DNA of 64,000 nt from Bacteroidales bacterium (lineage in GTDB: Bacteria > Bacteroidota > Bacteroidia > Bacteroidales > Paludibacteraceae), in contig JALFYY010000007.1 of the NCBI GenBank assembly GCA_022783865.1, positions 4,020-68,019 on the forward strand. The letters are read 5' to 3'. The notes beneath the pieces are model-generated. The model saw nothing but the letters and a program-made list of their open reading frames with translations. It was not told the origin of the DNA and did no database searches. Numbering within the stretch: the first letter of the stretch is position 1; each line of letters opens with the position of its first letter. Of this stretch, positions 15,701 to 19,515 are shown piece by piece. The position numbers and the translations under genes are program-made.

Positions 15701-16426
15701 TCATTTCTTTCTCTCCATATCTTTGGTCAATGGGGAATCTATTAATGAATATCGTTGCAACATTCCTTTAATTTGTTTTGGAGAACAAAACATTAAAATA
15801 TCAATCATTGATAACCCAGGTACAAATTCATTCTTGAATTGCTGATAACATTCTATCTCCGGTTTTAAGAATAACAACTTGATATAATGGTTATCAAACA
15901 CATTCTTGTCGTATAGTTCGACACCTCCAATAGCATTGATATATGTATCGGCATGCAACAATTTACATATACTTATAATTTTATCTTGACCTTTCAAAGA
16001 ATTATCTTTTTCAATATCCGAAGAAAGAATAATGTTGGTTTGCATGTGCAAATAATCACACACATTTCTGATACTATTATCTATGAATAGCGCGATATTA
16101 TGTTTCGGGAAATCAAAGATAGTATCTAATAACTCCATAGTTTCCGCATAGAAAGGCGCTTTAGCATATGCCATTTGTATTGTTTTTCGTAATTTTGAGA
16201 AATCATCTGCAATAGAAATTTCATTTATCAATTTATTTTGACTAGCTTCATGCAAAGCAATAGAAAACAACTTTTTCTCTCCATTCAATAGGATATTATT
16301 TCGATTAATCCACCCGCGCTTAATAAAGTTTACATCATCATATACCACATATGTATCTACCGCCGCAATTAATTGCCAATAACCAATATATGGCATAAAA
16401 TATGGCTGCATTATTCCTATCCTCAT
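15701..16426 (-). CDS. WbqC-family protein
   Basis: MRIGIMQPYFMPYIGYWQLIAAVDTYVVYDDVNFIKRGWINRN is the characteristic WbqC N-terminus. Confidence 0.8.
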   Translation of the reverse strand: MRIGIMQPYFMPYIGYWQLIAAVDTYVVYDDVNFIKRGWINRNNILLNGEKKLFSIALHEASQNKLINEISIADDFSKLRKTIQMAYAKAPFYAETMELLDTIFDFPKHNIALFIDNSIRNVCDYLHMQTNIILSSDIEKDNSLKGQDKIISICKLLHADTYINAIGGVELYDKNVFDNHYIKLLFLKPEIECYQQFKNEFVPGLSMIDILMFCSPKQIKGMLQRYSLIDSPLTKDMERKK

Positions 16427-16464: not shown

Positions 16465-16623
16465 TTAAAGCCAAGTTCCTTTTTCATCCGAATAACGATG
16501 CGCAACATTATTCGGCAGGTAGTCTGCCGTAATAACATAGTATCCTTGCTCGTACGCCGCCTTAATCACAGGCAGCAAATAGTGGATACCACCGAGGAGC
16601 ATTATTTTCTTTTGGACTGACAT
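16465..16623 (-). pseudogene. ATP-grasp enzyme remnant (first ~48 codons only)
   Basis: Not in the ORF track. My translation, MSVQKKIMLLGGIHYLLPVIKAAYEQGYYVITADYLPNNVAHRYSDE, is followed by KGTWL and a stop. It matches the pre-ATP-grasp N-terminus of the roughly 400-aa enzymes usually found beside WbqC and DegT genes (from memory). Confidence 0.5.
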
Positions 16624-16659
16624 ATTATAGCCTTTCTATCTCTTTCAAATATAACTTTT

Positions 16660-18222
16660 TCATATCTTATTTGCAACGCATTGTATCACACGCTCTACAT
16701 CCTCTTGACTTAATGCGTGGTGCATGGGGAGGCAGATGACGCTATCTGCCAACTTATGGGCATTAGGAAGATTAGCGGGCGTTGCTGACGCATACTTATC
16801 GTATGGGCTAAAGGTACTAATCAAAGGATAGAAATAGCGGCGCCCCAAGACATTTTGGGTCTTCATCTTCTCGTATAATGCGTCACGGCTCATACCATAT
16901 TGCGCTTCGTCCACAAAGATAGGGAAATAACTATAGTTATGCCTTACACCCGGCATATCGTCAAAGAAAGTGATACCTTCCACTCCGCGCAAAGCCTCGC
17001 GGTAACGGATGGCAACTTGGCGACGTGCTTCGATGGCAGCATCTACCTGCTTCAAATTGAGCAAACCATAAGCCGCACGCATCTCGTCCATCTTGCTATT
17101 GATACCCGGTGCAACGACCGTTGTCTCTCCACGGAAACCAAAGTTTTTCAAATTGTCGATATGCTCTTTCATCTCTTTGGAACGGCATATCAAGGCACCT
17201 CCCTCTATGGTATTATAGACTTTGGTAGCATGAAAAGACAAGGTGGACATGTCACCATACTGCAGCACAGAGACAAGCCTACCCCTTACCCCTCCCTTAA
17301 GGGAGGGGAGTTGGGCTACTGTTTCTTTGAGTTTAGATACTACTTGGTCGGGGTTATGCAGCAATTCTTCATTGGTAAAACGCAACTCTGTTACTCCTAA
17401 TTGTTGTAATTTGTACGTTCTGCGCGCATCTTCCTCTTGCTGCTCCTGAGTAAAATGGTAGCCACCATCCAACTCAATACTCAACCCCTTATCCACACAA
17501 AAGAAATCTACAATAAAGTCTTGGATGATATGCTGCCTACGGAAATGGAGTTCCAAACCATTTGCTTTCAATATATTCCACAGAACAGATTCTGCTTCTG
17601 TCGGATGTTTACGATGATACTCTGCATGCTCTTTCAGTTTTCCATACAAGACAGGATCTGCTGTATGAGCACCCCATTTGCTTACAAAAGACTCTTTTCC
17701 TTCATGGGAAAATTTAGGAGAGGCTATCTTTACGCCAAACGCATGGGCGGCATCATAAATAACACGCAAGTTGTACTTCTTTGCAATGGCATCGATACGT
17801 TCGACATCGCAGGGCTTTCCATACACATGCACCGGCATAATAGCCGTAGTACGGGGGGTGATAGCCGCTTCTATCTTATCGGGATCGATATTGCCTGTGC
17901 GCGGGTCAATATCCACAAAGACCGGCGTAAGTCCGTTCCACCAAATGGCATGCGTGGTCGCCACAAAAGAATATGGTGTGGTAATAACCTCTCCCTGTAT
18001 GCGAAGTGCTTGCAGAGCCGTGATAAGAGGCAAAGTGCCGTTGGTGAAGAGGGAGATATATTCTACTCCGAGATACTCTGCGAGTGCCTTCTCCAACTGC
18101 TGATGGTAGTAACCATTATTGGTAATCCACTTGCGATTCCAAATATCCTGCAACAACGCATTATACTCCTCCAAATCGGGGAGCAAAGGACAGGTAACGG
18201 TTATTTGACTGGTATTATCCAT
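16660..18222 (-). CDS. DegT/DnrJ/EryC1/StrS-family sugar aminotransferase carrying an in-frame DUF559 endonuclease-like insertion
   Basis: The aminotransferase motifs YDAAHAFGVK (aa 156-165) and TLSFHATK (aa 327-334) are separated by about 150 extra residues. These contain TEAESVLWNILK...FRRQHIIQDFIVDFFCVDKGLSIELDGGYH...RFTNEEL, the DUF559/Vsr-like pattern. Confidence 0.85.
   Translation of the reverse strand: MDNTSQITVTCPLLPDLEEYNALLQDIWNRKWITNNGYYHQQLEKALAEYLGVEYISLFTNGTLPLITALQALRIQGEVITTPYSFVATTHAIWWNGLTPVFVDIDPRTGNIDPDKIEAAITPRTTAIMPVHVYGKPCDVERIDAIAKKYNLRVIYDAAHAFGVKIASPKFSHEGKESFVSKWGAHTADPVLYGKLKEHAEYHRKHPTEAESVLWNILKANGLELHFRRQHIIQDFIVDFFCVDKGLSIELDGGYHFTQEQQEEDARRTYKLQQLGVTELRFTNEELLHNPDQVVSKLKETVAQLPSLKGGVRGRLVSVLQYGDMSTLSFHATKVYNTIEGGALICRSKEMKEHIDNLKNFGFRGETTVVAPGINSKMDEMRAAYGLLNLKQVDAAIEARRQVAIRYREALRGVEGITFFDDMPGVRHNYSYFPIFVDEAQYGMSRDALYEKMKTQNVLGRRYFYPLISTFSPYDKYASATPANLPNAHKLADSVICLPMHHALSQEDVERVIQCVANKI
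17289..17308. repeat. 20-nt perfect palindrome CCCCTCCCTTAAGGGAGGGG at the 3' edge of the DUF559 insertion
   Basis: Read directly. It is translated on the minus strand as PSLKGG inside the DegT ORF. Confidence 0.9.
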
Positions 18223-18225
18223 GTA

Positions 18226-19515
18226 TTAGCGGAGTTTGGTCTCTGTGTAGTTGAATTTTGGTGTTATATCACCGGGTTCACGCCCCATCCATGCTCCGAT
18301 TTCCAATTGCTTGTTCGACAAAGTAAACGAAAGCACATCAGAGCCACGATCTCCAATCAAATGCCGGATTCCGCCATCTGATGTTACCGCCATCAAATCA
18401 ATAATATAATTACCCCAATTCAGGAAATCGCGAGGAATATAGCAACGTTGTTCGTATTCTCCTGTTTCATGGCACTTATCGTAACAACGTCCGCCCCCAC
18501 TTGTCGAGAAGATACGATTTCCTTGCTCATTTTTCCAATGCATCGTAAGCCAAAAATTATCAAACGCCCGTGTTAAACGATAACGAATTACCATTTCCAA
18601 TTCATCATCCACGCGCATTACAGCATCATATCCGGCGCCACGTTTACGAATGCCTATTTCACACAATTCAAATCCACCGCCTTTAATCTCAGGTTCGTTC
18701 CAAGCTTTATAATTTTCGATATCATTATCCCCACGAAGATAACGACTCACAATCGGGTCAATATCACCAGATTCCAACAATTGACCATTCTGCAAAATAA
18801 TACCATGCTTGCACAAGGCTTTGACACTTGCCATGTTGTGGGAAACGAAGAGAACGGTGCGGCCTTCGCCGTGGGAGATGTCTTGCATCTTGCCGATAGC
18901 CTTCTTCTGGAACTCGGCATCACCAACCGCAAGGACTTCGTCAACAACCAAAATCTCCGGGTCAAGATGAGCCGCAATGGCAAAGCCCAAACGGACCGTC
19001 ATACCGGAACTATAACGCTTCACCGGCGTATCGATATAACGCTCACAACCGGAAAATGCCACAATCTCATCCAACTTGCCGGAAATCTCCGCCTTTGTCA
19101 TCCCCATAATGGCACCATTCATGTAGATATTCTCACGCCCCGTCATCTCCGGATGGAAACCCGTACCCACCTCCAACAAAGAAGCAATACGTCCACGGGC
19201 ACGGATTGTACCCGTAGTAGGCGCAGTAACACGACTGAGGAGTTTCAGCAACGTGCTTTTGCCGGCACCGTTCTTCCCGATAATACCTACCACATCGCCC
19301 TGCTCCACCTTGAAATCGATGTCACGAAGCGCCCAAACGTATTCGCTACTGCCTTTTGTAGCACGGTCGTTGGTTTCGCCTATCTTGAGATACGGGTCCT
19401 CGTGGCGCAAAACAGAAGTCTGCCACCAACGGTTAAGGTCGTGCGACAAAGTACGTGTAGAAACAAGCCCAAGGCGGTATTGTTTACTGACATGATTGAA
19501 TTCGATTGCCGTCAT
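18226..19515 (-). CDS. polysaccharide/teichoic-acid export ABC transporter ATP-binding protein (Wzt/TagH-like) with C-terminal extension
   Basis: Walker A GKNGAGKST, signature YSSGM and Walker B ILVVDE are present, plus a roughly 170-aa C-terminal beta-rich domain as in Wzt. Confidence 0.9.
   Translation of the reverse strand: MTAIEFNHVSKQYRLGLVSTRTLSHDLNRWWQTSVLRHEDPYLKIGETNDRATKGSSEYVWALRDIDFKVEQGDVVGIIGKNGAGKSTLLKLLSRVTAPTTGTIRARGRIASLLEVGTGFHPEMTGRENIYMNGAIMGMTKAEISGKLDEIVAFSGCERYIDTPVKRYSSGMTVRLGFAIAAHLDPEILVVDEVLAVGDAEFQKKAIGKMQDISHGEGRTVLFVSHNMASVKALCKHGIILQNGQLLESGDIDPIVSRYLRGDNDIENYKAWNEPEIKGGGFELCEIGIRKRGAGYDAVMRVDDELEMVIRYRLTRAFDNFWLTMHWKNEQGNRIFSTSGGGRCYDKCHETGEYEQRCYIPRDFLNWGNYIIDLMAVTSDGGIRHLIGDRGSDVLSFTLSNKQLEIGAWMGREPGDITPKFNYTETKLR

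Follow-up and report, generated by a model that had tools for sequence, protein, structure and literature searches.

A DUF559 nuclease nested in frame in a Bacteroidales DegT aminotransferase is probably a copy of a mobile element with hairpin-forming terminal inverted repeats

We examined a 64,000-nt stretch of a Bacteroidales (Paludibacteraceae) genome (GenBank assembly GCA_022783865.1, contig JALFYY010000007.1, positions 4,020 to 68,019; hereafter the window), in which a gene for a DegT-family sugar aminotransferase is interrupted by a complete DUF559 nuclease domain that keeps the reading frame open. The inserted segment is probably a copy of a mobile, selfish element bounded by terminal inverted repeats (TIRs), the sole protein of which is a Vsr-fold (DUF559) nuclease that would be translated as an internal domain of the aminotransferase and tolerated by it rather than spliced out. 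The family to which this element belongs is large and apparently undescribed. The features of the locus are as follows.

16660-18222, minus strand: host gene, a DegT/DnrJ/EryC1-family sugar aminotransferase dependent on pyridoxal phosphate (PLP), insert included; 520 aa (Pfam, NCBIfam, alignment to DesI)
17728-18222, minus strand: N-terminal host segment, aa 1-165, ending in ...DAAHAFGVK (Pfam; alignable to empty alleles)
17276-17725, minus strand: inserted element from TIR to TIR, 450 nt (150 codons) long, with 5'-AGCCT...AGGCT-3' as its ends (coding strand); missing in the empty allele L001
17692-17725, minus strand: 5' TIR, partly decayed, AGCCTCTCCTAAATTTTCCCATGAAGGAAAAGAG, encoding (I)ASPKFSHEGKE; forms a weak 6-bp hairpin only
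17320-17637, minus strand: DUF559/Vsr-like PD-(D/E)XK nuclease domain, aa 196-301 (Pfam, PDB 3hrl), preceded by the N-terminal helix of its subfamily, aa ~184-195, WGAHTADPVLYG
17276-17310, minus strand: 3' TIR, intact, CTCCCCTCCCTTAAGGGAGGGGTAAGGGGTAGGCT on the coding strand, encoding LPSLKGGVRGRL; inverted repeat I17
17289-17308, no strand assigned: 20-nt perfect palindrome CCCCTCCCTTAAGGGAGGGG, the hairpin/cruciform core of the 3' TIR; single occurrence in the window
16660-17275, minus strand: C-terminal host segment, (L)VSVLQYGDMSTLSFHATK... through the stop codon; second DegT stretch, aligned to DesI residues 188-377

A preliminary description of this DNA had proposed that a complete DUF559 unit lies in frame inside the aminotransferase, and profile searches confirmed this. 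The Pfam profile DegT_DnrJ_EryC1 (PF01041) matched in two stretches (E = 2.8e-97), the first of which (aa 18-168) covers profile positions 5-156, where the match is split. Between the two stretches lies a strong match to DUF559 (PF04480; aa 196-301, profile positions 3-107 of 109, E = 1.9e-26, 92.5 bits against a cut-off of 20.6). NCBIfam agreed with Pfam, and its model PRK09767 matched with E = 3.7e-13, under its equivalog cut-off. Consistent with this, the solved sugar aminotransferase DesI (2po3) aligned to aa 28-166 and 322-514 and left the insert in the gap between, and the structure 3hrl, an 'endonuclease-like protein', matched the DUF559 part (E = 2.5e-14). The host part retains the cofactor Asp157 and the PLP Lys334 and is modelled with a fold type I architecture. 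These two residues, in the motifs DAAHAFG and SFHATK, are 177 residues apart in the window protein and 29 in the empty allele P0093, so that the spacing is indeed abnormally long, as had been noted. The coordinates originally assigned to the segment, 17272-17727 (aa 166-317), were also correct, with the TIR-bounded element itself at 17276-17725. Two linkers and the DUF559 domain together make up all 152 inserted residues. Only the host frame is open through the element; the remaining five frames contain 2-11 stop codons each.

An artefact of assembly or annotation, such as a chimeric contig, has a next to negligible probability and was rejected. The same junctions recur in independent assemblies, namely in an 11-member Logan/ENA cluster and at locus L002, and 76 other DegT clusters are filled as well; we found nothing that would favour an artefact apart from the lack of an NCBI accession for the window protein, while its neighbour has one. 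This neighbour, an upstream ABC-transporter ATPase (18226-19515, minus strand), is deposited as MCI7575413.1 from a metagenome-assembled genome labelled 'Bacteroidales bacterium', and the DegT-DUF559 protein (16660-18222, minus strand) is known from Logan/ENA gene calls only. The deposited annotation may treat the gene as a pseudogene.

The comparison with orthologs identified the segment as an insertion. A whole-protein search covered 5.8 billion sequences, and the state of the allele was scored in the 120 best homologs, in which the position of the insert was filled in 76 cases, empty in 40 and occupied by short remnants in 5. The open reading frame (ORF) was intact in all 76 filled clusters. 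All 13 ortholog clusters nearest in the host part (90-97% identity) were empty and read GVK-KDG (or KNG)-VSVLQYGD; at the DNA level, the empty allele L001 carries AAAGATGGAGTGAGC in place of 468 nt in the window. Among these near relatives, P0087/L002 alone shares the insert (host 95%, insert 96% identity), and in the next filled protein the identity of the host part drops to 79%. The segment is therefore far from universal among DegT orthologs; universal presence would have marked it as an old domain fusion. That interpretation was rejected given the empty state of orthologs with 90-97% identity and the strong disagreement between the host and insert trees. In four other DegT orthologs (P0173, P0175, P0189 and P0194), the same loop, corresponding to window aa 165/318, holds an unrelated short repeat, RHPERSEGSH(DLS)RHSERSEGS. 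Because this repeat occupies the same site, the sequences suggest that the DegT loop accepts insertions of several repeat families.

A further argument for mobility comes from the ends of the element, which we compared across the family by local alignment of the DNA upstream of each nuclease core with the reverse complement of the DNA downstream. Hairpins with C-run/G-run stems stand on both sides of the core, and the upstream hairpin recurs downstream as its reverse complement, down to the loop. The resulting TIRs are 30-50 nt long and follow the consensus 5'-AGCC(T/C)xCCCC - 4-5 nt - CCCCTCC - loop - GGAGGGG. TIR scores of at least 28 were obtained for 50 of 73 loci as opposed to none of 73 shuffles, and the two ends of one element matched each other better than ends taken from different elements (p = 5e-15). 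Across 80 loci, hairpin density was 2.0 per kb in the DNA adjoining DUF559 cores compared to 0.12 per kb elsewhere. Most hairpins away from cores came in mirrored pairs, each of them a short element that lacks the nuclease but has the same termini, akin to MITEs (miniature transposable elements with inverted repeats). One case is locus L028, where a nuclease-bearing element and two short copies with identical ends lie within ~2 kb.

L028, 2927-3395: DUF559 element, 469 bp, with the ends AGCCTCCCCC...GGGGGAGGCT
L028, 3945-4075 and 4645-4775: two near-identical MITE-like elements, 131 bp, with the ends AGCCTCCCCC...GGGGGAGGCT

Homologous copies occur in L029, and comparable pairs of nuclease-bearing and MITE-like elements were found in L022, L029, L040, L045, L051, L070 and L082. 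TIR-only elements also occur as in-frame inserts in proteins (P0089-P0091, L166). The family hence combines element-specific TIRs with short non-autonomous copies that share the TIRs of the protein-coding form, as in TIR transposons and their MITEs. Two further variants were seen: P0163 contains a 73-aa remnant, an internal-deletion derivative that keeps both ends, and P0136 and P0170 carry hairpin-type units (PIPPNGGE..TPLSGLGG) within a loop of DUF559 itself.

The window copy fits this pattern at its termini, which agree with the AGCC...GGCT ends of 34 related elements and of their MITE-like derivatives. Its TIRs are ~35 nt long, with the 5' TIR matching the reverse complement of the 3' TIR at 22 of 35 positions and closely resembling the 5' TIRs of the subfamily members L005 and L007. 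The palindrome CCCCTCCCTTAAGGGAGGGG is present once in the window and was matched by none of 100 shuffles even when 3 mismatches were allowed. The initial observation that a 20-nt perfect palindrome ends the insertion thus holds for the palindrome itself (17289-17308), which is more than the end of the insertion, being the hairpin of one of two TIRs. In folding predictions the 3' TIR formed its hairpin with a z-score of -1.8, and the fold energy of the 5' TIR (-4.9 kcal/mol) was indistinguishable from that of shuffles. The hairpins of the window copy alone are not statistically remarkable, and it is the family-wide pattern that carries the argument. Among the 34 elements with clear termini, lengths modulo 3 left residues of 1, 2 and 0 in 16, 10 and 8 cases, respectively; the window element measures exactly 450 nt.

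Relatives of the element are abundant and occupy many unrelated genes. A genome scan with one genome per species located at least 575 places with the same architecture. The best 80, from which details were taken, belong almost all to Bacteroidota (Prevotella, Paludibacteraceae, Bacteroidaceae, Flavobacteriales, Chitinophagales); the majority are nested in long ORFs and ~17 are standalone ORFs of 120-150 aa. A HMMER search of 1.84 billion representatives returned 18,687 clusters at E<=1e-3, and the best 150 of these comprised 49 internal, 21 N-terminal, 20 C-terminal and 60 standalone domains. In 70 long (>=250 aa) DUF559-bearing proteins we counted 92 different Pfam families. The nearest relatives of the window insert (57-65% identity) reside in FemAB-like acyltransferases, family-2 glycosyltransferases (GT2), another DegT (at a different position) and NAD-dependent epimerases (in their C-terminal part). 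According to Pfam, the hosts of nested copies include DegT at no fewer than four positions, epimerases, a GNAT/FemAB protein, the Ile-, Leu- and Val-tRNA synthetases (IleRS, LeuRS, ValRS), RecG, a MCM-MeaB fusion, MazG, SpoIID, an AAA_11/12 helicase and a GAF protein. A search of IMG/VR for a phage origin gave distant relatives only, with at most 48% identity over partial matches. In N-terminal fusions, the frame starts at an ATG of the element, meets no stop codon there and continues across the 3' repeat into the host gene, as was observed for guanylate kinase (Gmk), with the L028 DUF559 element at its 5' end, and for the following hosts.

L033: IspF (YgbB)
L035: SpoU methylase
L051: RNase H
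L081: aconitase-family protein

The proposal that the segment is a selfish endonuclease-type element is supported by these data, yet it is incomplete, as the family also has TIR ends and comprises standalone, nested, N-terminally fused and MITE-like forms.

The distribution also bears on what determines the insertion site. When metagenomes were scanned with a degenerate 48-nt pattern derived from the subfamily of the window, there was a single match, the koala-gut contig L166 (2-1159). Here, a paralogous DegT with only 22% identity to that of the window contains a 73%-identical element at the same Pfam profile position; L004 shows the same pattern. Given that the target DNA is unrelated and the structural loop is the same, selection for tolerant loops accounts for the site better than sequence recognition at the DNA level does. 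The paralogous DegT of L166 contains two further in-frame TIR-only inserts elsewhere, ASPQPSPEGKGARL and TPPFREGQGVGLPSLQGGAGGRLP. Rather than having one conserved DNA target per endonuclease lineage, the subfamily (57-73% identity) is spread over orthologous DegT genes, the 22%-identical paralog, FemAB-like proteins, GT2 enzymes and epimerases. In addition, three element types have entered the same DegT loop, with offsets of +5/-4, +8/-12 and +3/-6 nt from the flanking Val/Ser codons. Because these nucleotide offsets differ, the sequences indicate independent insertion events and not one inherited insertion.

These observations render it quite improbable that the segment is a classical site-specific homing endonuclease that recognises the empty DegT loop and spreads by gene conversion only, with the hairpins as incidental features, for instance of translation or of the linkers. 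Such an endonuclease would account for near-isogenic filled and empty alleles with a short co-conversion-like tract and for an insert younger than its host alleles, both of which are described below, and Vsr-fold homing endonucleases are known, namely I-Bth0305I (PMC3239194) and the fractured-gene family (PMC2677866). However, it would not account for close relatives in dozens of unrelated genes, nor for the different offsets within one loop, nor for the fact that the same TIRs bound standalone copies between genes and MITE-like copies devoid of the nuclease. Moreover, a long recognition site specific to one gene could hardly be accommodated by a protein of ~125 aa.

To follow the insert independently of its host, we compared the window with the filled locus L002 and the empty locus L001. 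Between the window and L002, dS (synonymous divergence) was 0.027 for the DUF559 core and 0.35 for the codons of the DegT host, i.e., ~13-fold lower in the insert. In a three-way sliding comparison, L002 and L001 were near-identical, with mostly 0-2 differences per 60 nt, both in the upstream ABC-transporter gene and over DegT's 5' half, and in this region the window differed by 25-30% from both. In the 3' half of DegT, in turn, the window was nearly the same as L001 (0-2 differences per 60 nt), and L002 differed from both. Over the 60 nt 5' of the insert, the filled alleles (window and L002) were identical and differed from the empty L001 at 5 positions; this stretch looks like a short co-conversion tract. 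The locus pair L002/L001 and the low dS together amount to a homing-type presence/absence polymorphism with an insert younger than its flanks. Discordance between host and insert was also evident among the 76 filled DegT clusters, in both directions: P0150 and P0155 share 94% identity in the host and 38% in the insert, and P0112 and P0119 share 80% in the host and 98% in the insert. Judged by this pattern of similarity, the polysaccharide locus is a recombination mosaic. The similarity between the window and L001 stops just 3' of DegT, at ~16700, where a 52-aa ORF with no Pfam match (16465-16700) and then a WbqC-like gene (15701-16426) follow, both on the minus strand.

The mosaic could also be read as the trace of an immobile relic, that is, an ancient invasion that left a dead copy, the patchiness of which is due to ordinary homologous recombination in a hypervariable polysaccharide locus. 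The decayed 5' TIR with its weak hairpin, the single copy in the window and the differently pairing segments of the window, L001 and L002 would all agree with this. We nevertheless consider a relic unlikely, since the nuclease has kept its catalytic residues and evolves under purifying selection in its core, the dS of the insert is 13-fold below that of the host, and members of the subfamily occupy unrelated genes as well as a paralog with 22% identity, places beyond the reach of homologous recombination.

The nuclease domain is conserved as would be expected of a functional enzyme. The catalytic-type motif D ... E-x-D-G-x-x-H ... D is present in the window as DF...IELDGGYH...D, and its D, E-x-D-G, H and D columns were invariant both in 13 inserts and in the 70 divergent long DUF559-bearing proteins. 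The dN/dS of the nuclease core was 0.09 in comparison with L003, which indicates purifying selection at the sequence level. An AlphaFold model based on a 77-sequence alignment had a mean predicted local distance difference test score (pLDDT) of 84.9, with confident DegT and DUF559 parts and values <50 at aa 170-186 and 309-313, the segments encoded by the TIRs. These Pro/Gly-rich stretches are predicted to be disordered, flexible linkers. The insert leaves the predicted DegT fold between strands 165-167 and 316-318, and the modelled DegT part superimposed on DesI, perosamine synthase (PerA) and ArnB with target-normalised template-modelling (TM) scores of 0.86-0.90. The DegT fold is thus predicted to be intact despite the insert, in accordance with the idea of a loop insertion that structure prediction had been suggested to check.

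Searches for a splicing system gave no indication that the insert is removed. No Hint/splicing domain (blocks A, B, F, G) was among the Pfam matches at E<=0.01, and residues of intein junctions are absent, as the insert starts with Ile-Ala and ends with ...Gly-Arg-Leu-Val before Ser318; the junction residues of other family members are diverse. The claim that intein termini are lacking was therefore correct, and an intein was rejected on both grounds. A group I or II intron was likewise rejected, as an Rfam search of both strands of 16500-18400 returned nothing at E<=1, and the whole window had no such match at gathering score. Some unrecognised intron- or intein-like removal, for example by complementary TIRs that pair in the mRNA and loop out the ORF, could be imagined, since the two TIRs are mutually complementary in most family members and would bring the junctions together. 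This has a very low probability, however, considering that the window TIRs pair poorly, that the junction I...L-V|S is not of the type Cys/Ser...His-Asn, and that the frame is kept, with no stops through both junctions, in dozens of hosts, which argues for translation of the full fusion. The insert is evidently retained in the mature protein, as far as can be read from its sequence.

In one host, retention may have gone further. In RecG of Flavobacteriaceae (L041, L050, L052, L062, L066, L069 and L071, from Tenacibaculum, Polaribacter, Algibacter and others), the insert is located between the DEQH/FGV motif and MTATPIPRT, and host and insert diverge concordantly across genera. The sequences indicate that this insert was inherited vertically across genera, and it may be fixed or domesticated. 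Such concordance suggests that long vertical retention is possible, implying that the fusion protein works. Together with the conserved nuclease motifs, the RecG insert, kept across genera, would also favour the idea that DUF559 is in general a domesticated domain, kept for an added function such as DNA tethering, regulation or defence. For the window we regard domestication as highly unlikely, as nearly all close orthologs in this DegT lineage are empty, the host enzymes are functionally unrelated, and the TIRs and MITE derivatives indicate a parasite at the DNA level.

Based on these results, we propose the following model for the TIR-bounded mobile element. An element of ~450 bp, with TIRs of 30-50 nt that each contain a GC hairpin and with a Vsr-fold nuclease as its one encoded protein, would have entered the turn of the DegT beta-hairpin between the Asp-bearing strand and the PLP-lysine strand, in the sense direction and in frame. 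As the window copy has neither a start nor a stop codon of its own, the ribosome would read straight through and the nuclease would be produced as a domain inside the aminotransferase. The C-run/G-run repeats would yield Pro/Ser...Gly-rich peptides, flexible linkers that let the nuclease hang off the surface of the enzyme; with the DegT fold unbroken owing to these linkers, splicing would be unnecessary. The nuclease may act on its own repeats, in hairpin or cruciform form, and/or on unoccupied DNA, and the break could be healed by host recombination or repair, leading to homing-like spread between alleles and occasionally to new sites. Within needed genes, the survivors would be those insertions that are sense, in frame and in tolerant surface loops. 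More tentatively, and in our estimate plausible without being probable, the family could be an unrecognised class of prokaryotic transposable element, in which a Vsr-fold nuclease works its own hairpin TIRs, the repeats double as stop-free linker sequence, and the missing autonomous partner of elements like the palindromic elements of Rickettsia is at hand.

Several observations weigh against a mobile element at this site. The claim that the aminotransferase sequence resumes precisely after the insertion did not hold: in-silico removal of the element yields GVK-I-VSVLQ in place of the GVK-KDG-VSVLQ of empty alleles, and the Ser codon is TCT as opposed to AGC. As excision does not regenerate the empty allele, neither the original insertion event nor its exact target can be reconstructed. 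The 5' TIR is decayed, as described above, with many mismatches to its partner and a hairpin no better than in shuffles, and because of this decay the window copy may no longer be mobile on its own. There were no further copies or solo hairpins of the element within the 64-kb window. At the level of the family, no target-site duplication was found in the 34 elements with clear termini, for which flank repeats of 1-4 nt occurred at chance frequency, and only the MITE-like forms, not the nuclease-bearing form, were represented by near-identical copies at more than one locus of the same genome. Bacteroidales polysaccharide loci recombine heavily, and the mosaic and the discordance could in part stem from ordinary homologous recombination. 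The activity and substrate of the nuclease are assigned from homology and conservation. Finally, a lone hydrolytic nuclease is incapable of strand transfer and would not by itself account for integration, and there is no target duplication.

The element resembles several known systems in part. The Rickettsia palindromic elements (RPEs) are hairpin repeats that lie in frame in many unrelated genes and are read through, unspliced, at tolerant sites of the protein (PMC10969869). They share with the DUF559 family the capacity to form hairpins and the in-frame, unspliced presence in many genes, a likeness that extends to the short TIR-only inserts of the present family in L166 and P0089-P0091. However, RPEs measure ~150 bp and encode no enzyme, whereas the DUF559 family has a conserved nuclease in the host frame, AGCC...GGCT termini and hosts among the Bacteroidota. 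In the phage ShiLan, a DNA methylase gene contains an HNH endonuclease that is encoded out of frame and has a start and a stop codon of its own, a case that involves one host gene in actinophages (PMC11855218). There, too, the host ORF is left open, no intein or intron signature is present, the insertion is predicted to loop out from the host protein and presence/absence is homing-like; in contrast, neither TIRs nor MITE derivatives are reported, and the DUF559 family has a Vsr fold, lies in the host frame and occupies hundreds of chromosomal host genes. A catalytic fold is shared with the Vsr-like (EDxHD) homing endonucleases, including I-Bth0305I and the 'fractured gene' endonucleases (PMC3239194, PMC2677866), which have been grouped with DUF559 (PMC3424549) and likewise place a Vsr-type PD-(D/E)XK core in a selfish element that invades conserved genes. 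These are free-standing ORFs or reside in group I introns and split inteins, with extra DNA-binding regions and one long target each, whereas the DUF559 nuclease has ~125 aa, is bounded by TIRs, is translated within its host and has many targets.

Inteins are also in-frame, nuclease-containing inserts in conserved and often essential proteins (aminoacyl-tRNA synthetases, helicases) with presence/absence polymorphism. The DUF559 element differs from them in having neither a Hint domain nor splice-junction residues and in evidently being retained in the mature protein. Insertion sequences with TIRs and MITEs share with the family the co-varying TIRs, the autonomous and short non-autonomous forms and the many unrelated sites. 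In contrast to these, the one ORF of the DUF559 element encodes a hydrolytic nuclease and not a DDE, serine, tyrosine or HUH transposase; Pfam recognised no such transposase in the element, where DUF559 is the sole domain, and target sites are not duplicated. The suggestion that this arrangement had not been described for DUF559 was borne out in so far as the full-text-searchable literature, which excludes subscription-only papers, contains no description of nested, in-frame or TIR-bounded DUF559 elements; DUF559 is named in just 25 of its papers. There is a substantial chance that they form a distinct class of mobile element, beyond selfish endonuclease elements and in-frame MITEs.

To our knowledge, selfish endonuclease genes are thought to persist in needed genes only via splicing, either of the RNA (introns) or of the protein (inteins). 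The DUF559 family appears to persist by tolerance instead, with DNA ends that double as code for linkers and with insertion into surface loops of Ile-, Leu- and Val-tRNA synthetases and RecG. If true, such an unspliced life inside essential proteins would be a third strategy beside introns and inteins. If the nuclease mobilises the repeats, a PD-(D/E)XK nuclease and hairpin TIRs without target duplication would constitute a new transposition chemistry and a tractable model for the in-frame entry of palindromic repeats, a question that dates from the Rickettsia elements; the family would also be a natural source of insertion-tolerant sites and linkers for protein engineering. In practice, the inserts can lead annotation pipelines to call essential genes pseudogenes or 'fusion' proteins, and in gut and rumen Bacteroidales they are markers of very recent recombination at capsule and O-antigen loci.

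A minor observation concerns the strand composition of the repeats. At 17276-17300, the coding strand of the window reads GGGAGGGGTAAGGGGTAGG, with four closely spaced G-tracts on the sense strand of the 3' repeat. Similar G-tracts occur in the 3' repeats of most family members and on the antisense strand of the 5' repeat. Judging from the sequence, the G-tract strand might adopt a G-quadruplex instead of the hairpin.

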